Source of the DNA: Chitinophagales bacterium
Lineage (GTDB): Bacteria > Bacteroidota > Bacteroidia > Chitinophagales > CAIOSU01
Length of the DNA: 64,000 bases
Direction of reading: 5' to 3'
NCBI GenBank assembly: GCA_040877935.1
Contig: JBBDNB010000043.1
Location: 26,109-90,108 of the forward strand
Within the stretch, counting starts at the first letter, position 1. Each line of letters opens with the position of its first letter. Position numbers and translations under genes: made by a program. Shown here piece by piece: positions 30,971 through 40,562 of the stretch. The notes beneath the pieces are model-generated. The model had not been told where the DNA came from, made no database searches, and saw nothing but the letters and a program-made list of their open reading frames with translations.

Positions 30971-31093
30971 TGCTCAAAGATAGGAGATATATTGTTCGAT
31001 AAAATACATTCTCAATTATTTACCGTGTTTAGCCTCAAAAGCTTTTTTAATGAGGCAGAAAATGGCTATTTTTGCAGTTCCAAATTTTAAAAT

Positions 31094-31203
31094 GGTCGCG
31101 TAGCTCAGTCCAGACGAAGCAAAGCTTGTCTGGATGCAGACATTCAGAGAATCGTCTGCATTGGATATCGCAATTTTTGATTACCGCAGGTTTTTAATCC
31201 TGC
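31094..31203 (+). pseudogene. degenerate tRNA-Arg-like copy A interrupted by two hairpins
   Basis: GGTCGCGTAGCTCAGT equals tRNA nt 1-16. Next come hairpins CCAGAC...GTCTGG (31110-31133) and ATGCAGAC...GTCTGCAT (31134-31161), then TGGATA (rest of the D-loop), then the T-arm-like GCAGG-TTTTTAAT-CCTGC (31186-31203). There is no 3' acceptor strand. Confidence 0.7.
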
Positions 31204-31214
31204 TTTGAAATATT

Positions 31215-31277
31215 GGTCGCGTAGCTCAGTTGGATACCCGCCCGTACCGAAAAGGCACGTTCGGGCGGGGAGCATCT
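31215..31277 (+). pseudogene. tRNA-Arg 5' fragment B (nt 1-30) with a 33-nt GC-rich palindrome in the D-loop
   Basis: GGTCGCGTAGCTCAGTTGGATA, then the insert at 31237-31269 (CCCGCCCGTACCGAAAAGGCACGTTCGGGCGGG), then GAGCATCT. Identity to the real gene ends in the anticodon stem. Confidence 0.85.
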
Positions 31278-31315
31278 TAAAGCATTACATTGACTATTTT
31301 AATTTTTGAAAACAT

Positions 31316-31389
31316 GGTCGCGTAGCTCAGTTGGATAGAGCATCTGCCTTCTAAGCAGACGGTCACAGGTTCGAATCCTGTCGCGATCA
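31316..31389 (+). tRNA. tRNA-Arg (anticodon TCT)
   Basis: Hand-folded cloverleaf: acceptor GGTCGCG/CGCGATC, D-arm GCTC-AGTTGGATA-GAGC, anticodon arm TCTGC-CTTCTAA-GCAGA, variable loop CGGTC, T-arm ACAGG-TTCGAAT-CCTGT, discriminator A. 74 nt, no encoded CCA. Confidence 0.95.
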
Positions 31390-31393
31390 CGAA

Positions 31394-31425
31394 AAGGCTT
31401 CACAAGTGTGGAGCCTTTTTTATTT
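31394..31425 (+). terminator. rho-independent terminator after tRNA-Arg
   Basis: AAGGCTTCAC/GTGGAGCCTT stem followed by a T-run. Confidence 0.7.
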
Positions 31426-31457
31426 TATAATTTGAGTGAATTTATTTCTTGAAAACC

Positions 31458-31520
31458 GCAGACGGTCACAGGTTCCCCGCCCGAACGCATTCAGGCGGGC
31501 GGGGAATCCTGTCGCGATCA
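31458..31520 (+). pseudogene. tRNA-Arg 3' fragment C (nt 39-74) with a 28-nt GC-rich palindrome in the T-loop
   Basis: GCAGACGGTCACAGGTTC, then the insert at 31476-31503 (CCCGCCCGAACGCATTCAGGCGGGCGGG), then GAATCCTGTCGCGATCA. A second terminator-like hairpin follows (31523-31557). Confidence 0.85.
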
Positions 31521-31562
31521 CAAAGCCTTCCAAGAAATTGGAGGGCTTTTTTGTTTTTCAAA

Positions 31563-31668: not shown

Positions 31669-31737
31669 TTACTTTTTTCTGATAGTTTCCTTTAGGTCAT
31701 CACCCAAGCGTGTATTTACATTGTCGATTAGTTTCAT
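31669..31737 (-). pseudogene. 22-codon remnant resembling the N-terminus of PLD-nuclease/helicase defense proteins
   Basis: Hand translation gives MKLIDNVNTRLGDDLKETIRKK then a stop. MKLIDN....L...L...I is the N-terminal pattern I recall for PLD-domain helicase-associated proteins. Homology stops where the tRNA-flank sequence begins. Confidence 0.3.
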
Positions 31738-31743
31738 AGTGTA

Positions 31744-31997
31744 TCAGCCAAAATATTTTTCTTCATCACTCAGTTCCTTAATCAAGTGAGTGCAATTTCT
31801 TTCTTCTGCCCATCTACAGGTAGACTTCCAACGATCACCTTTTTCAAAGTCAGAGCTAAAGTTCCAACCTGCGAGAATCAAAGGCGTTGGCGGTTTTCAC
31901 CTTTTGATTCAAGTTCTTGCTTACAATAATTATCTAATGTCTGGTGTATTTCATGCCAAACTTTAGGAATAGGTGATATAAACTCCTTGTTATACAT
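31744..31997 (-). pseudogene. small conserved-looking ORF with a frameshift, translationally coupled to res
   Basis: The ATG overlaps the res stop (TAATG). Frame a reads MYNKEFISPIPKVWHEIHQTLDNYCKQELESKGEN and stops at 31878-31880. A second frame continues PPTPLILAGWNFSSDFEKGDRWKSTCRWAEERNCTHLIKELSDEEKYFG to the stop at 31744. The total of 254 nt is not a multiple of 3. Confidence 0.5.
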
Positions 31998-34900
31998 TAA
32001 CTCAATTGTACAATATCCATCAGCTTTTCATAGCTGCTTACTTTCTCAAATTTAACTTCTGCACCACTTATCTCATTAAAATGGACTTTGGCGCATTCAA
32101 TTTTTAGCTTCTCGATCTCTCTCAAGTCCATATCCGAATCAGAACCTTTGGTTTCTGCAACGAAGTAGATATGTCGGACTTTGTCCTTGTCAAAGACTAT
32201 CGCCCAATCCGGACTGTAATTGGCAACTGGTGTGGAAATATAGAAGCTTTTAGGAAGCTTGGCATAGACCACTACTTCGGTGCTGTTTTCTAAGGCTGTA
32301 GCAAAGTCCGATTCAATTTTAGAGTCGGAAGTAAGGAAGTCGTAAATGTGCTTTTTGAGAAATTCAGACTTGCGCAAAGCAAATTTATCATTGGTAAAAA
32401 CCGTTTTGACATCATGCCTTTCTTCAGTTTTGTGATAAACAATATTGTTGATTATCAGGCTTGCCTTCACTTCATTGATCAGCTTGCTGCATTTGCCAAT
32501 AAACTCTTCAGGATTCTTACGAATGAGCAGGAACTTCTCTTGCTTAATCTTCTTGAGTATCTCTACAATGGTTTTTCTTGTGAGGTTGGTTTGCACTTCA
32601 ATTTCACCCACCACATCATACACTGTATTGGAATAGAGGTCGTTTTTCAGTTTCATGTACTGACGTTTGGACTCACGTACCAAGCTGCCTTCTTTCATTT
32701 GCTCTGCTGTACCGTCTTCTAATTCTCCTGTCTTTATTTCATATACACGATCTCCAATATTGAGCTGCGCATCTATTCTGATTTTTGAATCTTGAATGAG
32801 CTGCTCTGTATCGAACTGTACTTCGTAAATGGTTTTCAGGTTTATTTTTTCCCAAAGTGCCTGAAACTCCTTTTTTGAAAAGTTCTTGTTGGTATTGAGA
32901 ATTACAGTTTGGCGTTCATCTTCAGGTTTAAACTCCTTTCCTGTATAGACCGATGTCAGCAATTTGCAAATTGAGGTTCTATAAGGCTCAAGCTGTTCGG
33001 GTAGAGGCACTTTGTTTTGTTCGATAAGTTCTTTTCCTTCATCGGTTACCTTGCCATTGGCATCCGCTACCCTCTCAAATAAAAGAGTGTTGTTCAGCAA
33101 AGTAGCTTCCAGCTCGTCTATTCGGTGTTCATCCCCCTTTTCGTTCGTTACTACTTTATTGATAAATATTCGAGCCTCAATTTTTTGCGGACGGTCTTTG
33201 AGGGTATCTGCAATTTCTTTTTGTAGTCCTTTGGCAAAGGCTTCATAAGTCTCGGAAGCAATGACGGTGAGTTTATTAATTTCATGTACTCGTTCTCCTA
33301 CTAATCCAAAATCCTGACGGACACCGTGGTTATTTACACAAAGGCGCATGCCGCGACCTACTTCTTGTCTGCGCCTGGTTAGGCTTCCACTTTCAGAGTG
33401 TTTGAGGGCGCAGATTTGGAATACATTCGGGTTGTCCCAACCTTCTTTCAATGCTGAATGAGAGAATATAAAGCGGGTTGGTTCTTCAAAACTGAGCAAC
33501 CTTTCCTTATTCTTCATTATCAGGTTATAAGCTGAAACATCTTCTGAATCTTCCTTGCCACGTTTCACAGTAGGATCTACAGTTTTTCCTTTTTTATCTA
33601 TTGAAAAATAACCATCATGTACTTTTTTAGGAGTATCACGCATAAGGTATTTGTCATATAGAGGCATTGTCATGTCGCGTTCTTCTTCACGGATTTTAGC
33701 ATATTCTTCTTCAAATATTTTGGCGTATTCGCCCAATTGCTGTTCCCCTAATTCATCATAAACACGGTATTTCTCTACGGTATCAATAAAGAAGAGAGAA
33801 AGCACCTTTATGCCCTGGCCAAAAAGCTGCTTTTCTTTTTGCAAATGAGAAAGGATGCATTCCCTTATCTGCACCCTGCGGAAAGCATGTTCATCTTTAT
33901 CATTAAGAATATCTCCTGGAAAAACATCCTGACCCCCAACCACTATCTTATTTAGATAGCCATTAATTTCGGTTATTGTTTGATTCTTGTATGCAGGCAT
34001 ATTTCCTGAATGCTCATAAATGTTGTAGCCTTCAGCAACCTTTATCCGCTTTTTGGTAATGGAACCGGAAGCCGTTCGTTTTTCATGTTCTATTAATGCA
34101 TAAGGTGGTTTTGTGGTACTCAGAATGATATTTTCTAAATACATATATCCCGTTGTACCTGTTGAACCTTTTAGGTTAATACCCTTTACTTGTATTTTCT
34201 TCACCAAGCGTTTGTTGTAGGCATCTAATGCATCGAGGCGATAAATCTTATTGTATTCAATTTTGTGGGTAGCTGAATAACGTAACGTGAAAAGTGCATT
34301 AAAGTCCTGCATACTCTTTAAGGTCTTTTCACCTTCTACTGATTGTGGCTCATCCACTATTAAGATTGGGTTAGTCTCTGCTATAATTTCAATAGGCTTA
34401 CGTGTGCCAAACTGGTCTAATTCCTGATAGATACGTCTTGCATCTTTACCACGCGCATTGAATGCCTGTGTATTGATAATCATGACACTGATACGGCTGT
34501 CAGAAGCGAAGTTCTCAATATCCTGCGGGCGGCCTGAATTATATATGAAAGGATTGATCTTGTGCCCATAGAGTTCCTGAAAGTGGTCCTGTGTAATCTG
34601 AAAGGATTTGTACACCCCTTCACGAATAGCAATGCTGGGCACAATGACAATGAACTTACTCCAACCGTATTTTTTATGCAGCTCGTACATGGTCCGGATA
34701 TAGGTATAGGTTTTACCAGTACCTGTTTCCATTTCAATGGTGAGGTTGTATCCCAAATTCACACCATTAGGGCGTTCAATTTTCTTGCTTTCATGAAGGT
34801 CATTCTGTTTTTGGACTTCCTGAATGTTTTTGAGCATTTGTTCATCCCAATTTTTAGGAAGTTCAGAATTTCGATAACCAATTTCTTTTTCTATTTCAAA

Positions 34901-35065
34901 GTCTAAGCTTTGAATTCCCATAGCTGCTTGCTTAGCTTTGCGAATGAGTTCCTTACTACGCTCTAAGGTGAAGTGATTGGTTTTTAGTGGTTGCCCTTCA
35001 AAACAATCTACTACAGCCTGAACCGCCTTTATCTGAAAGTCTTGTTCTTTAAACTGTAGTTTCAT
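31997..35065 (-). CDS. res: Type III restriction endonuclease Res subunit (SF2 helicase + C-terminal PD-(D/E)xK nuclease)
   Basis: 1022 aa. Walker A METGTGKTYTY, DExx box LIVDEPQS, helicase motif VI RRRQEVGRGMRL, and a C-terminal nuclease core YSPDWAIVF...IYFVAETKG. Confidence 0.9.
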   Translation of the reverse strand: MKLQFKEQDFQIKAVQAVVDCFEGQPLKTNHFTLERSKELIRKAKQAAMGIQSLDFEIEKEIGYRNSELPKNWDEQMLKNIQEVQKQNDLHESKKIERPNGVNLGYNLTIEMETGTGKTYTYIRTMYELHKKYGWSKFIVIVPSIAIREGVYKSFQITQDHFQELYGHKINPFIYNSGRPQDIENFASDSRISVMIINTQAFNARGKDARRIYQELDQFGTRKPIEIIAETNPILIVDEPQSVEGEKTLKSMQDFNALFTLRYSATHKIEYNKIYRLDALDAYNKRLVKKIQVKGINLKGSTGTTGYMYLENIILSTTKPPYALIEHEKRTASGSITKKRIKVAEGYNIYEHSGNMPAYKNQTITEINGYLNKIVVGGQDVFPGDILNDKDEHAFRRVQIRECILSHLQKEKQLFGQGIKVLSLFFIDTVEKYRVYDELGEQQLGEYAKIFEEEYAKIREEERDMTMPLYDKYLMRDTPKKVHDGYFSIDKKGKTVDPTVKRGKEDSEDVSAYNLIMKNKERLLSFEEPTRFIFSHSALKEGWDNPNVFQICALKHSESGSLTRRRQEVGRGMRLCVNNHGVRQDFGLVGERVHEINKLTVIASETYEAFAKGLQKEIADTLKDRPQKIEARIFINKVVTNEKGDEHRIDELEATLLNNTLLFERVADANGKVTDEGKELIEQNKVPLPEQLEPYRTSICKLLTSVYTGKEFKPEDERQTVILNTNKNFSKKEFQALWEKINLKTIYEVQFDTEQLIQDSKIRIDAQLNIGDRVYEIKTGELEDGTAEQMKEGSLVRESKRQYMKLKNDLYSNTVYDVVGEIEVQTNLTRKTIVEILKKIKQEKFLLIRKNPEEFIGKCSKLINEVKASLIINNIVYHKTEERHDVKTVFTNDKFALRKSEFLKKHIYDFLTSDSKIESDFATALENSTEVVVYAKLPKSFYISTPVANYSPDWAIVFDKDKVRHIYFVAETKGSDSDMDLREIEKLKIECAKVHFNEISGAEVKFEKVSSYEKLMDIVQLS

Positions 35066-36693
35066 TTTTCTTCTATTAGATCTATTAATTTCATTCCTGA
35101 GTCAGTGATTTTATATCGTTGTTTGGGATGAGTTGGAGTATCGGGGTATTCCATTGTTATCCAACCTATCTCAATCAGCGGATCTAAATACTTCTTTCTA
35201 TTAATCGTTTGGTTACTTAGGTTCATCTTTTCGAATAACTCTTCTCTTTTAATCCACCGTTTAGTAATATCAAGAACTTCTAGTACTCTACTATGAACTT
35301 CTTCATTAATTATAGCTCGAGCTTGGTCACTAGCTCCGTTAGTAGCTCCGTTAGTAGCTCCGTTAGTAGCTCCGTTACTAAAACTAACTATGTCTTCTAA
35401 ATCTTTAAATTTGAACACATTAGCTTGGTCACTAGCTTGGTCACTAGCTTGGTCATTCAGATGAGCAGAAAGGGTAACAAGTACATAACTAGCATCATCT
35501 GTTTCAAAAGAGGGTTCAGAAGAACCATTGGCTTCCAAAGCACCATAAATAGAAGGGAAGCCTGTCCCTCTTCCTTCAGTGAGTTTTAATTCTTTCAGAA
35601 AATCTCCGATTCTCCGATTCCTATATTCTCGAGCTATAATTCTTTTCTGGGTCGAAAGAACTTCACCGTTTACAGGAGGAACCGGTCCCGGATGACTCAA
35701 AATGGTCATTTTATCGGGAAACACTTGGATCTCAATTGGGGCAACATGCTCATAGCTTTTATGATATACCGCATTAGACAAAACTTCCTCAATTGCTTCG
35801 AATGGATAATTGAAAAAACGTTCTGACTCTGCTTTGTTAGCGTGTTTATTGACTTGTTCGGAAATTATGTTGCTCTTGATATAGGAAAGAGTCTCCCTCA
35901 ATTGCTTATGTAAGGGGCCTTTGAAATAGACTTCTTTAAAATTCTTTCCCGAATCATCTTTATGACGTACCAATTCAATCCATGCCCTATCAAAAAACCG
36001 TTCAGGTTTTTTAGAGAAAAATAACAAGCCAACATTCACTGGTCTCACATCTTCATTCGGACCTTTGGCAATGAGCATGGTTTTACACAAGTCAGCAAAT
36101 GGCATGTGAGCACTTTCTTCAAGTAAACCACTTTTGATTTCCTGAAGGTATTCGCGGATAAGCCCTAAGTCTAAGTCATCAAGAGAGGCTTGATTATTTA
36201 TTCTATCATCAAAAGGAATTCGAGCGGCTAACTCTTGAAGTTTTCTAAGGTTTTCTCCTTGAGCTATAATGCTTGTTGAGCCTACACGCACATAATGTCG
36301 TCTTTGAGCTCCATTCCCAAGAGTTGTTGGAGCTGTATAGGGCCGATTATCACCGGCAGGACACCAAAGTACCAAAACAAGTTGCCCTTCTAGCTCATAG
36401 GGTGCTGTAATTGGAAAGTAGGTTGGATTAATTCTATGACCTAGTTGAACGACTTCTCCTTGAATAGCATCTAATTGATTTCGTTGTAATCCTACTGGAG
36501 GAAGAACGGGTTGACCATTTTCTTCAGCAACACCAACGATTATATATCCACCTCCCCAATTTTGTAGATCATTGGCAAAAGCACACATGGAATGAATTAC
36601 ATCCTCGGGGTTCCACCCCTGCTTAAACTCTAAGCGCTCCCACTCAACGGTATTGCCATGTATCAACTCCTCTATGTTTACCGGTAAGGCCAT
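35062..36693 (-). CDS. AlbA_2 (Schlafen-like divergent AAA) + HATPase_c_4 + C-terminal wHTH-like protein embedded between mod and res
   Basis: N-terminal EWERLEFKQGWNPEDVIHSMCAFANDLQNWGGGYIIVGV (AlbA_2 pattern). Central EEVLSNAVYHKSYEHVAPIEIQVFPDKMTILSHPGP (HATPase_c_4 pattern). It has a 4-nt ATGA overlap with the res start and a 2-nt gap after the mod stop. Confidence 0.8.
   Translation of the reverse strand: MALPVNIEELIHGNTVEWERLEFKQGWNPEDVIHSMCAFANDLQNWGGGYIIVGVAEENGQPVLPPVGLQRNQLDAIQGEVVQLGHRINPTYFPITAPYELEGQLVLVLWCPAGDNRPYTAPTTLGNGAQRRHYVRVGSTSIIAQGENLRKLQELAARIPFDDRINNQASLDDLDLGLIREYLQEIKSGLLEESAHMPFADLCKTMLIAKGPNEDVRPVNVGLLFFSKKPERFFDRAWIELVRHKDDSGKNFKEVYFKGPLHKQLRETLSYIKSNIISEQVNKHANKAESERFFNYPFEAIEEVLSNAVYHKSYEHVAPIEIQVFPDKMTILSHPGPVPPVNGEVLSTQKRIIAREYRNRRIGDFLKELKLTEGRGTGFPSIYGALEANGSSEPSFETDDASYVLVTLSAHLNDQASDQASDQANVFKFKDLEDIVSFSNGATNGATNGATNGASDQARAIINEEVHSRVLEVLDITKRWIKREELFEKMNLSNQTINRKKYLDPLIEIGWITMEYPDTPTHPKQRYKITDSGMKLIDLIEEK
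35321..35377. repeat. in-frame 12-nt tandem repeat AGCTCCGTTAGT x3.8 (encodes NGAT x4), preceded by one GCTTGGTCACTA unit
   Basis: Units at 35332-35343, 35344-35355 and 35356-35367, plus a partial unit to 35377. A single copy of the other repeat unit abuts at 35321-35332. Confidence 0.95.
35421..35455. repeat. in-frame 12-nt tandem repeat TAGCTTGGTCAC x2.9 (encodes DQAS x3)
   Basis: Units at 35421-35432 and 35433-35444, plus a partial unit to 35455. Confidence 0.95.
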
Positions 36694-36695
36694 TA

Positions 36696-38738
36696 CTAAA
36701 TCACTTTCATTTCGGTTTCAGGACTCAATTGCTTCAGCAATTGCTTTACATTGGTCTTGGCAGTATCGTTCTTAAAGCCACTGTCTTTAAACACAATACG
36801 CAAGGGCACTTCTTTGGCTATGGCTTTGGCAAATGCCTCATCAATACCGCTATCGAAACAGGCATAGAGGGAGTTCTCTGCTACTTTAAACACCTTCTTT
36901 CCCGATACATCAATTTGCTCGATTTTGAGCGAAAGTGGCAAGCCCCAATCCAACATCACTTGTGCCAACAGATCATCTGCCGTGCGGTCGGGTTTTACAT
37001 TGTCTGCAAAGAGGTCTAAGTTGTTTTGCTCATAGTCCTGTGGCTTGTAATACACATCTTGCATATTGCTTTCATCCAAGCGATAGACACGGAAGCCATA
37101 ATCTATATCTACATTGGTTTCTTCCTTGATTTTCTTGGCTGCTCTGCGGATGCGTTCTTTGCCTATTTCGCAAATGTTTTTGTATCCAGCTTTATAAGCT
37201 TCACTTTTTTCATCTGTTTTTTCAGGTAATTGAACTTGTATGAACTTTCTATGACCATTATCAGTAGAGTTTAACTCAAGAATAGATTGTGCTGAACTCG
37301 CAGAACCTGAAAAAAAATCTAAGACAATAGCTTCTTGATCTCTACTTGTACAGTAATTTATCAAGTTTGCTAAAATCTCGTGATCTTTTGGATTATTAAA
37401 TACACGTTGTTTTCCGAAAATACTATTTAGCTCATTGGTGGCTTGAAGTCCACTTCGATAAAAATATGTTCCTAACACTTGAAGTCCTATCTCAGGCTCT
37501 TCGGAATTTTCATTTAGACTTCTAACAAGATATGTTTTTCGAATAGGTGGTTCTGTATGGTCATCCCGAAAAACTACATATCCCTGTTCAATCTTTTCTT
37601 GCATAACCTCAGCAGAAGCGTACCGCCAACCTCCAGATGGCATGGCACATGGCTTTCCAGTTTTTGGGTGAATAACATCATATCGAGCACCTCCTCGTGG
37701 CAAAGACATATTATCATCGCGCCAAACACCGCGTTTATCTACGTGAGAGTATCTCGAATGCTTTTTTGAAGGGTGGTCTTTGGGAAGATTTTTATAGAAC
37801 GTTTTTAATTCTTTTTCTATTTCTTCAAAATTATCACCATGTTGTTTTTTTGACTTTAAGAAAAAATTGTAAATCTCTCTTGCTCCAGGCTTTTCCTCTC
37901 TCCAGTGAATGTTTTGGTCAATTAAATACTCTTTGTCTTTAGCAAATACCAATATGTATTCATGTCCATGTGAAAAGAACCTTGAATCATTCTTCCTGCC
38001 TTTTTCCCAAAGTAAAGTTGATACATAGTTGAAATCTCCAAAAACTTCATTCATCATTGATTTCAAATTCCCTATTTCATCTTCCCCAATACTTATCAAA
38101 ATCACGCCATCAGAAGTCAAGGTATTCCTTGCTAACTTCAAGCGAGGATACATCATGCTCAACCAATTGGAATGGTAACGTCCTGCGGTTTCGGGGTTGG
38201 CTACCAGGCGTTGCATGTACTCGTCTTTTTGTCCGCTTTCAATCAGTTCTTCCCGGGCAGCCTTGCTAAAGTTGTCTTTGTACACAAAATCATTCCCTGT
38301 ATTGTAAGGCGGGTCTATGTAAATCATCTTCACCTTGCCCAGGTAGCTTTCTTGCAGTAGCTTGAGCACTTCCAAGTTGTCGCCTTCTATGTAAAGATTT
38401 TCGGTATTGTCAAAGTCTACGGAGTCTTCCCGTACAGGGCGTAGGGTTTTGGTAGTAGGTAGGTTGGCAGTTACTATGGCTTCTCGTTTCCCTGGCCACT
38501 CCAAACGGTAGCGTTCTTTATTGCCTTCTACCACGGCATGGTTGAGTTCCTGCTTGAGCAGGTCAAAATCTATGCTTCGGCTCCGCTCAGCAACCCCATT
38601 TCTTTCAATGGTACTTTCCGTAACGCAGTTAGGGAATAGGGCGGCTAACTTTTCAAAGTTTTCATTCACCAAGTCAGGTGATCTGAGGTCTAATTTTTCA
38701 TTACTCATATTACATGCTACATATTCAGCTTTATTCAA
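36696..38738 (-). CDS. mod: Type III R-M N6-adenine DNA methyltransferase Mod subunit
   Basis: Motif IV MIYIDPPYNTGNDF (DPPY) lies upstream of motif I VLDFFSGSASSAQS, with a variable region between them, as in beta-class Mod proteins. An alternative start is the MSNEKLDL ATG at 38708. Confidence 0.9.
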   Translation of the reverse strand: MNKAEYVACNMSNEKLDLRSPDLVNENFEKLAALFPNCVTESTIERNGVAERSRSIDFDLLKQELNHAVVEGNKERYRLEWPGKREAIVTANLPTTKTLRPVREDSVDFDNTENLYIEGDNLEVLKLLQESYLGKVKMIYIDPPYNTGNDFVYKDNFSKAAREELIESGQKDEYMQRLVANPETAGRYHSNWLSMMYPRLKLARNTLTSDGVILISIGEDEIGNLKSMMNEVFGDFNYVSTLLWEKGRKNDSRFFSHGHEYILVFAKDKEYLIDQNIHWREEKPGAREIYNFFLKSKKQHGDNFEEIEKELKTFYKNLPKDHPSKKHSRYSHVDKRGVWRDDNMSLPRGGARYDVIHPKTGKPCAMPSGGWRYASAEVMQEKIEQGYVVFRDDHTEPPIRKTYLVRSLNENSEEPEIGLQVLGTYFYRSGLQATNELNSIFGKQRVFNNPKDHEILANLINYCTSRDQEAIVLDFFSGSASSAQSILELNSTDNGHRKFIQVQLPEKTDEKSEAYKAGYKNICEIGKERIRRAAKKIKEETNVDIDYGFRVYRLDESNMQDVYYKPQDYEQNNLDLFADNVKPDRTADDLLAQVMLDWGLPLSLKIEQIDVSGKKVFKVAENSLYACFDSGIDEAFAKAIAKEVPLRIVFKDSGFKNDTAKTNVKQLLKQLSPETEMKVI

Positions 38739-39137: not shown

Positions 39138-40562
39138 TTAGCTATTCACCTTCCTTTCTACTATATCTTTCACCCACTTGAGGTAAGCTACATTCTTGTT
39201 TTTTTCGATTTTATTTTTCAGTTTTTTCGCCAGTTCTTTTTCATGAGGTCTGAGTTTAGAAGCTTCACGCACATACTTGATCAGGTTGAGGTATAAGGTG
39301 CGCTGATAATCTGAAACTTGTTTGTTGCGTTTTAAATACACGCGAAAGGAATCCAGCAGTGAAGCCAGTGGTTTCATTACTTCCAGCTCATAATATATGC
39401 GCAGCATCATAGCCTTGGAGTCAAGGCTGTAGAACAGGTCACTGAACTCTACATCCTGCAGCAGCTCCTGCGCCTTTTCAAAATCTTTTTTATCAAAATA
39501 AATACTCGCCATGTTATATGCGTAGGCATCTTTTCTGAAATCAGATTCTATATGCTCTTTATAGTTTTCTACAAATTGTTCTGCCCATTGAAATTCTTCA
39601 AGGCGCAATGCCACACTTGTAATGTTTTTATAGGTCCAGGGTGATATGTGTTTTCCAAAGAAAATTATCCTGCTGTCAATGGTCATTTTATAGAGCTGAA
39701 ACAAATCTTTGAGATAATCCATATTGCCGTTGTTCACCTGTTTGATGCAATAATTTTGTGCATAAGCATACATATCACGTGCTTCCTTGGATGAAAATTT
39801 ATCGGTATGTGCTTTCAGTAATTTTTTCAATTGCTCAAAATGCAGCGTTTTTTCAGGTTCTTTCAGCGTCATTAGGATAGAGTAATAGACCTGAATGGCA
39901 GGAGCCTGATTAAAATCATGTTTATCAATATAGCGCAGTATTTCGTCCAGTAATTTAATCTCATAATCAGAAGCAACTACATTTCTGCGATTGAGAATTT
40001 CGCAGGAGTATTTGAGTTTGAGCGTGAGAAAGTAAATGTCAAGGTTGTCGATGGCAAGCTGCAGGCTTTTGTCAAACCTATGGGAACGTTGCTTGTCAAA
40101 GTAGGCATTGTCAGCAGCTTCAAGCAAAAATTCATCGTAGAAGAAATCTGCATCTCTGAATGATTTTCGCTTTTGATCTTTGCGTGCAGTGGACATGGTG
40201 CTGCGGTAATGCTTTTCAAGGTCTAGTGCAGTGTATTCCATTAACAGGTAAAACTGCTGTTGGATGCTTTGTTCTTTAAACCTTTCCTGTACAACATATT
40301 GCTCGGCAATAGACAGGATATCGCTTAGTAGATAACTCAGTTTTTTTTCATCATATTTCTGCTTGGGGAAAGCCAGTTTAAAAATGTTTTCTTTTGTGAG
40401 TTCAGGGCTGTCAAAATCAGGGGCAAACTGCATAAGTACCTTTACCAATTGGCAAAGAGCTTCATCTGTATTGAAATATGGAGAGTCGGCCATAGCCTGA
40501 ATTTTCTTCAGTTGACCTGGTCTCATTTTTTTTAAAAAAAGGATCAGTTTGCTGTTTTCCAT
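39138..40562 (-). CDS. hypothetical all-helical (TPR-like) protein
   Basis: 474-aa ORF with helical-repeat character (DAYAYNMASIYFDKKDFEKAQELLQ). I recognise no family. Confidence 0.6.
   Translation of the reverse strand: MENSKLILFLKKMRPGQLKKIQAMADSPYFNTDEALCQLVKVLMQFAPDFDSPELTKENIFKLAFPKQKYDEKKLSYLLSDILSIAEQYVVQERFKEQSIQQQFYLLMEYTALDLEKHYRSTMSTARKDQKRKSFRDADFFYDEFLLEAADNAYFDKQRSHRFDKSLQLAIDNLDIYFLTLKLKYSCEILNRRNVVASDYEIKLLDEILRYIDKHDFNQAPAIQVYYSILMTLKEPEKTLHFEQLKKLLKAHTDKFSSKEARDMYAYAQNYCIKQVNNGNMDYLKDLFQLYKMTIDSRIIFFGKHISPWTYKNITSVALRLEEFQWAEQFVENYKEHIESDFRKDAYAYNMASIYFDKKDFEKAQELLQDVEFSDLFYSLDSKAMMLRIYYELEVMKPLASLLDSFRVYLKRNKQVSDYQRTLYLNLIKYVREASKLRPHEKELAKKLKNKIEKNKNVAYLKWVKDIVERKVNS

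Follow-up and report, generated by a model that had tools for sequence, protein, structure and literature searches.

Prokaryotic Schlafens (pSlfns) were described in papers published in 2025-2026 as phage-activated defence tRNases (PMC13056530; PMC13462974; bioRxiv 10.64898/2026.05.29.728809), with a nuclease motif and a Schlafen box defined for the prokaryotic and human Schlafen tRNases (PMC13056530; bioRxiv 10.64898/2026.05.29.728809). The commonest pSlfn architectures are plain GHKL and GHKL with a helix-turn-helix (HTH) domain (34% and 19%); the HisKinase-HTH class makes up 19.2% of pSlfns (PMC13056530), and the plain GHKL(-HTH) architectures account for most of the 60,692 proteins termed Schlatpases (bioRxiv 10.64898/2026.05.29.728809). 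Genes for Schlafen-HisK proteins with a winged HTH (wHTH) are present in BREX/BR loci of at least 1017 taxa, and their products were proposed to be back-up suicidal effectors (PMC12839542). The 2026 papers place the protein class in BREX-type loci, as standalone genes, and link it to a Type I restriction-modification (R-M) operon, as a fused or standalone module. PrrC, encoded in another R-M operon, provides a second line of defence if restriction has been blocked (for a summary see PMC3710099). Here we analyse a pSlfn gene situated between the mod and res genes of a Type III R-M operon in a 64,000-nt stretch of DNA from a Chitinophagales bacterium (contig JBBDNB010000043.1, positions 26,109 to 90,108; hereafter the window). 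A preliminary description of this DNA held that AlbA_2/Schlafen-like ATPase proteins have no assigned role, a statement made outdated by the tRNase activity (PMC13056530; bioRxiv 10.64898/2026.05.29.728809) and the proposed back-up function (PMC12839542).

The minus strand carries three long open reading frames (ORFs) one behind the other, mod, the middle gene and res (Table 1); they encode 680 amino acids (aa; counted from the TTG), 543 aa and 1022 aa. The packing on one strand given in the preliminary description agrees with the ORF list, and the junctions that it named can all be read in the sequence: a 2-nt gap between mod and the middle gene (TAG-TA-ATG), a 4-nt overlap of the middle gene with res (ATGA) and a res stop overlapping the next ATG (TAATG). 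Two of its details need amendment. The mod ORF does extend over 36696-38738, but the gene probably starts from the ATG at 38708 and not from the TTG at 38738, because homologues align from residue ~10-14. The ATG at the res stop, in turn, opens just a 39-aa ORF that is the 5' part of a frameshifted gene (see below). No strong terminators were found at the operon junctions, and a sigma-70 scan, which does not model Bacteroidota promoters, returned 17 sites versus 19 in shuffled sequence. The GC content of the region is unremarkable and no integrase was found near the locus. A 474-aa ORF directly upstream of mod (39138-40562, minus strand) was rejected as part of the unit because neither Pfam nor PADLOC assigns it to a family and none of the related loci has a homologue of it.

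Judged by its domain matches, intact motifs and fold matches, the middle protein is a pSlfn of the class called 'HisKinase-HTH' or 'Schlatpase + HTH'. All three parts named in the preliminary description (AlbA_2, HATPase_c_4 and a wHTH-like domain) were recovered when Pfam was run on the 543-aa protein: SLFN_AlbA_2 (PF04326, 5.6e-15, aa 17-142), HATPase_c_4 (PF13749, 9.7e-13, aa 319-408) and, at the C-terminus, Fic-like_C/wHTH (7.7e-13, aa 477-530) and HTH_45, with an additional match to Sso10a. In PADLOC the protein matches the SLFN-GHKL part of a pAgo model (7e-22). The nuclease motif reads E17-x4-E22-x-K24 and the Schlafen box is at aa 37-41; the spacing of E303 and N307 in the GHKL domain equals that of E314 and N318 in the Schlafen-Argonaute RzAgo, the two residues that coordinate Mg-ATP there (bioRxiv 10.64898/2026.05.29.728809). 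The nuclease, Schlafen-box and ATP motifs are invariant in a 16-sequence family alignment and retained in 73-75 of 75 aligned family members whatever the genomic context, E303 and N307 in all 75. No helicase domain is among the Pfam matches, and homologues are annotated at source as 'ATP-dependent DNA helicase RecG' or 'RNA-binding domain protein', names that mislead for this family.

The C-terminal part evolves differently from the rest, with a mean pairwise identity in the family of 40% for the wHTH versus 67% for aa 1-408; a conserved enzyme part joined to a fast-evolving C-terminus is the pattern expected of an effector plus sensor. Between the GHKL and wHTH domains, TRF detects 3.9 repeat copies at 35331-35377 and 2.9 copies at 35421-35455 (100% match), coding for (NGAT)n and (DQAS)n. 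The linkers of all homologues are likewise repetitive and variable in length, which suggests variation of linker length driven by slippage. An AlphaFold2 model built from the 16-sequence alignment has a predicted local distance difference test score (pLDDT) of 61 and a predicted template modelling score of 0.40, with pLDDT below 50 in the GHKL part and 76-89 in the wHTH part. Since the quality of the model is low, fold matches serve as supporting evidence only. Foldseek aligned it with the full-length uncharacterised structure 3lmm (1.5e-16), with 2kyy (a 'RecG-related' N-domain), weakly, at probability 0.92, with the N-domains of SLFN13 (5yd0) and SLFN5 (7cux), with histidine-kinase CA domains and with wHTH regulators of MarR/ArsR/PadR folds. 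The winged helix also matches the C-terminus of a Fic protein (PDB 4rgl, 1e-05).

The identities given earlier to mod and res are borne out by both Pfam and PADLOC. Mod matches N6_N4_Mtase (3e-29) and, over the full profile, MTase_III (5e-225); its DPPY motif (aa 142) precedes DFFSGSAS (aa 474), which is the beta-class order with motif IV before motif I. Alignments with Mod homologues break at aa ~270-440, the variable part of the protein. Res matches ResIII, RE_endonuc and REase_III (2e-289) and combines a superfamily 2 (SF2) helicase with a PD-(D/E)xK endonuclease; the motifs GTGKT (aa 115-119), DEPQ (aa 238-241) and PD(952-953)...ETK(971-973) are invariant in the alignment of Res homologues.

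The placement of the pSlfn between mod and res recurs. The family has 3939 homologues at E<=1e-10; in a family-alignment scan of one genome per species (GTDB), we inspected the 80 closest loci, nearly all from Bacteroidota, and found the order mod-pSlfn-res in 22 of them. These come from Flavobacterium, Maribacter, Mariniflexile, Winogradskyella, Seonamhaeicola, Jejuia, Dokdonia, Sunxiuqinia, Albibacterium, Cyclobacteriaceae, Lentimicrobiaceae and others, and the order is present in metagenome contigs as well. The arrangement is thus not confined to one genome, and the gene is no isolated insertion. In the 19 loci with both neighbours called, the mod-pSlfn junction measures -1 to +4 nt and the pSlfn-res junction -4 to +21 nt; the 4-nt overlap of the window is found in 11 of the 19. 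Distances between pSlfn sequences correlate with those between Res sequences (r=0.74, Mantel p=0.0005).

An equivalent slot, just upstream of the helicase-nuclease subunit, is occupied by the pSlfn in Type I and Type IIG-like systems. Eleven further loci of the 80 have a Type I context with the typical order hsdM-hsdS-(Tmn)-pSlfn-hsdR, and HsdR is encoded directly downstream of the pSlfn in eight Type I loci. Four loci have the order Eco57I-like methylase-DUF3644-pSlfn-HKD-type helicase. Altogether, an SF2 restriction helicase (Res, HsdR or HKD-Snf2) is the next gene on the same strand in 34/80 loci, and a Parabacteroides plasmid carries HTH-pSlfn-SNF2-N6 methyltransferase. A neighbour-joining tree has several coherent Type III and Type I clades, with Type III, Type I and solitary copies interspersed. 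One clade (L059, L065, L067 and L070 in our numbering of loci) sits in a conserved dnaG-PNPOx-pSlfn-NAD epimerase neighbourhood with catalytic motifs intact, which hints at a stably resident, possibly non-island copy.

In a reverse survey of 80 metagenome loci anchored on Res (42-80% identity), mod and res are adjacent in 41, separated by one or more genes on the same strand in 26 and in the order res-mod in six. Two of these loci (L089 and L094) have a member of the close pSlfn family between mod and res, and in L084 a close-family pSlfn lies directly upstream of res in the order pSlfn-res-mod. Pfam annotation of ten representative inserts identified divergent Schlafen-GHKL, RhuM, Fic/DOC and SLATT_5 proteins (Table 1). 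With 26 of 80 loci bearing inserts, the mod-res junction of this Type III family is a hotspot for inserted genes, mostly toxin-type cassettes. In this survey, Schlafen inserts were observed solely in the clade near the window (Res at least 59% identical). The same phenomenon was reported for HEPN, RhuM and Fic genes in R-M operons by Anantharaman et al. (PMC3710099). A wHTH motif, R..YL.P...PD.P..P.QRY..T..G, is common to the pSlfn and to the Fic/DOC toxin inserted between mod and res in L100, and in L088 the wHTH stands as a separate 154-aa gene. The shared wHTH may be a common adaptor or sensor module of R-M-embedded toxins.

The canonical Type III system was described beforehand as a two-gene mod-res unit; that does not describe the relatives of the window locus. 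Eighteen Type III loci extend far enough downstream of res, and every one of them has genes there for an Snf2 helicase (~1075 aa) and a DUF4391 protein (~217 aa), giving the order mod-pSlfn-res-[variable insert]-helicase-DUF4391. A more distant Res clade has the same four genes in the order helicase-DUF4391-mod-res. The linkage of this Mod/Res family to the helicase and DUF4391 is almost always observed; there is at least one exception, L148, where no helicase lies within 6-8 kb of the res-mod pair. The helicase of the relatives matches the PADLOC model C3a139 'HKD+Snf2' (4e-119). A strict search for HxKxxxxD in these helicases gave no match, so we term the domain 'HKD-like', a name that follows the PADLOC model. 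DUF4391 has no PADLOC or NCBIfam model, and the two papers that a literature search on it turned up are unrelated. Distance matrices of Res and the helicase correlate at r=0.93, a tight co-divergence; that of the pSlfn with Res is looser. As to the identity of the larger unit, DISARM was rejected since DrmD matches are merely sub-threshold; no DUF499 that would indicate a BREX-related system is present among the annotated neighbours, and the composition differs from that of Hma. The interval between res and the Snf2 helicase is a second insertion hotspot, with three kinds of inserts (Table 1).

The window locus itself reads as a truncated, decayed copy of this larger conserved unit that has lost the last two genes. 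Of the helicase gene a stump remains downstream of res: the initial 21 codons and then a stop. Its product matches residues 1-21 of the ~1075-aa helicase in five related loci at 100% identity; the rest of the helicase and all of DUF4391 are absent from the whole window. Between res and the stump lies the frameshifted remnant of a small gene. A blastx comparison with the intact 84-aa gene of L016 (14778-15032) aligns the remnant in different frames, at 41% identity for aa 1-29 and 70% for aa 35-84; the 84-aa gene has no Pfam or NCBIfam family. Given the stump and the frameshifted gene, the operon reads mod-pSlfn-res-pseudogene-helicase stump. Helicase stumps are found also in L091 and L157, thus such decay recurs.

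On the other side of the stump the locus is bounded by a tRNA patch, described beforehand as a tRNA hotspot. The patch holds a sole intact tRNA-Arg(TCT) (31316-31390) and three tRNA-derived fragments around it. Two of these, at 31094 and 31215, are 5' pieces; the third, at 31458-31521, is a 3' piece and has a terminator-like hairpin of its own. In every fragment the D- or T-loop is interrupted by a hairpin rich in GC (CCCGCCCG...CGGGCGGGG) that is absent from the rest of the 64 kb; a search of the window for CGGGCGGGG located it at three sites, all within the patch. Taken together, the pieces at 31215 and 31458 resemble the halves of a single tRNA copy, parted at its anticodon loop by ~190 bp that include the intact tRNA. 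Integration and excision events probably left these fragments behind. No second copy of the 3' end of the tRNA was found when the sequence beyond the R-M genes was searched for one. Two of 21 related loci are adjacent to a tRNA, and tRNA adjacency was therefore rejected as a general feature of these loci and is regarded as a peculiarity of the window genome.

Table 1. Features of the window locus (positions in the window) and of related loci (locus:positions)
Feature	Position or loci	Strand	Basis or remark
mod, Type III beta-class N6-adenine DNA methyltransferase (probable start)	36696..38708	-	N6_N4_Mtase, MTase_III; ORF reaches TTG 38738
pSlfn, 543-aa prokaryotic Schlafen, GHKL(HisKinase)-wHTH class ('Schlatpase' + HTH)	35062..36693	-	Pfam, PADLOC, Foldseek
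Schlafen (AlbA_2) nuclease domain, aa 17-142	36268..36645	-	EWERLEFK + CAFAN
GHKL/HATPase_c_4 ATP-binding domain, aa ~290-408	35470..35826	-	N-box E303-x3-N307; G-box G374-R-G-T-G378
Low-complexity linker (DQAS x3, NGAT x3-4)	35320..35461	-	perfect in-frame 12-nt tandem repeats
C-terminal winged helix (Fic-like_C / HTH_45), aa 471-542	35068..35283	-	Pfam; PDB 4rgl
res, Type III restriction subunit: SF2 helicase + C-terminal PD-(D/E)xK endonuclease	31997..35065	-	ResIII + RE_endonuc; REase_III
Frameshifted remnant of ~84-aa gene after res	31744..31997	-	ORFs 31878-31997 (39 aa) and 31744-31881 (45 aa)
HKD-like Snf2 helicase stump, 22-codon ORF	31669..31737	-	first 21 codons then stop
tRNA-Arg(TCT) + tRNA-derived fragments with GC-rich hairpin inserts, locus boundary	31089..31560	+	ARAGORN, Rfam, alignment
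Divergent Schlafen-GHKL inserts in mod-res slot	L086; L088 (wHTH as separate gene, L088:6136-6600); L091 (beside ABC ATPase)		Pfam
RhuM inserts in mod-res slot	L134, L122; three further loci with same-sized inserts		Pfam
Fic/DOC insert with SoFic-like C-terminal wHTH in mod-res slot	L100:1203-2318		Pfam
SLATT_5 insert in mod-res slot	L115; identical-sized insert in L116		Pfam
Mod/Res linked to HKD-like Snf2 + DUF4391	L002-L005, L007, L010, L011, L017, L034, L037, L044 (e.g. L005:14780-18673); L098-L153		
Insert between res and helicase: PDC-S06 (AAA_13, weak PrrC-like match)	L002, L017, L034 (e.g. L034:14794-17076)		
Insert between res and helicase: PDC-S11 (DUF4268)	L007, L010, L011 (e.g. L007:14738-15682)		
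Insert between res and helicase: 151-aa gene + LmuB-like SMC ATPase	L014, L023, L073 (e.g. L023:15396-17822)		

The preliminary description proposed that the middle gene works with the R-M system as a regulator, a sensor or a second-line effector. Of these roles the effector fits best, given a nuclease motif intact in nearly every aligned family member. The reading that we favour, with a probability of roughly 55%, is that the pSlfn acts as a semi-autonomous, ATP-regulated tRNase, a second-line effector within the R-M operon analogous to PrrC. Binding of ATP to the GHKL domain would drive oligomerisation and so assemble the active Schlafen nuclease, which would then cleave tRNA. The enzyme would normally be latent and would be switched on by an infection cue read via the variable linker and the wHTH; translation would stop once the first-line DNA restriction had failed. 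The pSlfn would in this way provide a back-up, abortive-infection layer co-transcribed with the R-M genes, a functional analogue of PrrC, the anticodon nuclease of the EcoprrI Type I operon. These steps are modelled by homology on the characterised Schlafens and set upon the observed identity, placement and recurrence of the gene and the observed use of the slot. That many close homologues stand alone makes a semi-autonomous module probable. As for the claim that the gene works with the R-M system, the recurrent tight placement speaks for it and an obligatory coupling is not observed, about half of the close family being solitary.

Several observations weigh against the favoured reading. About half of the 80 closest homologues stand alone beside housekeeping genes (sigma factors, urocanase, MutS, S-adenosylmethionine synthetase, dnaG), therefore an R-M system is not required for maintenance of the pSlfn. 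The interspersed tree fits a cassette that merely moves around. The C-terminal wHTH has no clear R-M-type-specific signal (residuals +0.02 to +0.045), which argues against a dedicated interface for docking to Mod or Res; with the solitary copies, this makes the evidence on a PrrC-like latency by R-M binding indirect and rather negative. Of the HisKinase-type Schlafens that were tested by themselves in E. coli, none was one of the two protective constructs (PMC13056530). The structure model is of low confidence, and the window locus is without the HKD-Snf2 and DUF4391 genes and has its small gene frameshifted.

Much of this evidence would suit an autonomous hitch-hiker, i.e. a self-contained defence or toxin cassette that occupies a tolerated, transcribed and co-mobilised slot and has no cross-talk with Mod or Res. 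Beyond the solitary copies, the mixing of contexts in the tree and the featureless C-terminal domain, the slot also takes the unrelated RhuM, Fic, SLATT and ABC ATPase cassettes, and family members are carried by plasmids without adjacent R-M genes. We hold this explanation for less likely than the favoured reading. Against it, junctions of -4 to +4 nt are retained across genera, the gene is consistently directly upstream of the helicase-nuclease subunit in three R-M types, and its divergence tracks that of Res. The E. coli result, in which the Schlafens tested alone gave no defence, cuts both ways. Rather doubtful in our estimate is a further reading, in which the pSlfn would be a true guard of a composite system made of the Type III Mod/Res, the HKD-like Snf2 helicase and DUF4391. 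It would stay inactive while restriction works, and a phage block of Mod/Res or of the helicase would free it to cleave tRNA, with the Fic-like wHTH, which the Fic toxins of the same slot share, as a common adaptor reading the state of the R-M system or of the DNA.

Control of R-M operon transcription by the wHTH, in the manner of a controller (C) protein and as the old COG2865 label 'transcriptional regulator' would have it, is very unlikely. The wHTH does resemble MarR/ArsR/PadR folds, with matches to HTH_45 and Sso10a, and GHKL domains are known from signalling proteins. Still, the catalytic residues of nuclease and ATPase are almost invariant, which would be superfluous for a pure regulator, and in related loci small XRE-type HTH proteins are encoded separately, upstream of mod. 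C proteins are small HTH proteins (~80-120 aa) encoded upstream; here a 543-aa multi-domain enzyme is encoded inside the operon, and the same wHTH is found on Fic toxins. Least probable of all, and hardly to be expected, is a protein of nucleic-acid binding or repair without a role in defence ('RecG-like helicase' or 'RNA-binding domain protein') that neighbours the R-M genes by chance. The source annotations and the clade in the dnaG neighbourhood would agree with such a protein; the absence of a helicase domain, the half of close homologues that lie within R-M-type operons and the characterised relatives, which are defence tRNases, would not.

How does the locus compare with the systems already described? 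Like the canonical Type III systems EcoP15I and StyLTI, it has a beta-class Mod, a Res with an SF2 helicase and a C-terminal PD-(D/E)xK nuclease, and mod upstream of res on one strand. It differs in the gene between mod and res, in a Res that scores 341 bits on the enterobacterial equivalog model with a cut-off of 564, and in belonging to a family normally linked to the HKD-like Snf2 helicase and DUF4391. No description of the latter linkage was found in the literature searched. This widespread Type III family is normally a four-gene unit. For genome annotation it is worth noting that remains of deleted partner genes can persist as short ORFs downstream of res.

With the HisKinase-HTH pSlfns and Schlatpases (Perez Taboada et al. 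2026, PMC13056530; Kuzmenko et al. 2026, 10.64898/2026.05.29.728809) the protein shares SLFN_AlbA_2 with E-x4-(E/D)-x-K and the Schlafen box, PF13749 GHKL with the E...N Mg-ATP motif (E-x3-N, accompanied by the glycine box), the short C-terminal HTH and a defence-island neighbourhood. The sensors of characterised pSlfns are an Ig-like domain, DUF262 or an Argonaute core, whereas the window protein is a plain GHKL-HTH protein, a class in which a trigger, substrate or defence phenotype has been demonstrated for no member; moreover, the window copy is embedded in a Type III operon. The BREX-embedded Schlafen-minimal HisK-wHTH proteins (Rakesh & Krishnan 2026, PMC12839542) have the same architecture, are likewise encoded in or next to the core operon of a modification-based defence system and are likewise proposed, on computational grounds only, to be back-up suicidal endoRNases. 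The host system here is a classical Type III Mod/Res, with the HKD-like Snf2 helicase and DUF4391 in relatives, and neither BREX nor a DUF499-centred system. In the literature searched we found no paper linking a Schlafen to hsdR in an operon context and no description of the recurrent mod-pSlfn-res arrangement in Type III systems. The arrangement and the linkage to the HKD-like Snf2 helicase and DUF4391 thus appear to be undescribed. They provide the commonest, still uncharacterised Schlafen architecture with a defined genetic context, a fixed slot in Type III, Type I and Type IIG-like operons, of which complete examples exist in cultured strains (Mariniflexile fucanivorans DSM 18792, L004, and Maribacter polysiphoniae DSM 23514, L003).

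PrrC of EcoprrI (Type Ic), along with RloC, is the closest functional parallel. PrrC is a latent tRNA-cleaving enzyme with a regulatory NTPase domain, as the pSlfn is predicted to be, and both are encoded between the modification/specificity genes and the restriction helicase gene (in the window and in 22 Type III and eight Type I loci for the pSlfn). The folds are unrelated: a HEPN nuclease with an ABC ATPase, the combination defining the PrrC family, in PrrC, versus Schlafen with GHKL in the pSlfn, and the resemblance is one of function and position only. Only PrrC has been shown to be physically masked by the R-M complex and to be activated by an anti-restriction peptide, and many pSlfn homologues, unlike PrrC, are solitary. 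The finding is a new instance of the theme set out in the 2025-2026 papers and not a new kind of system; if the pSlfn should prove to be a guard, it would be a Schlafen-based, evolutionarily independent counterpart of PrrC in an uncharacterised multi-nuclease system.

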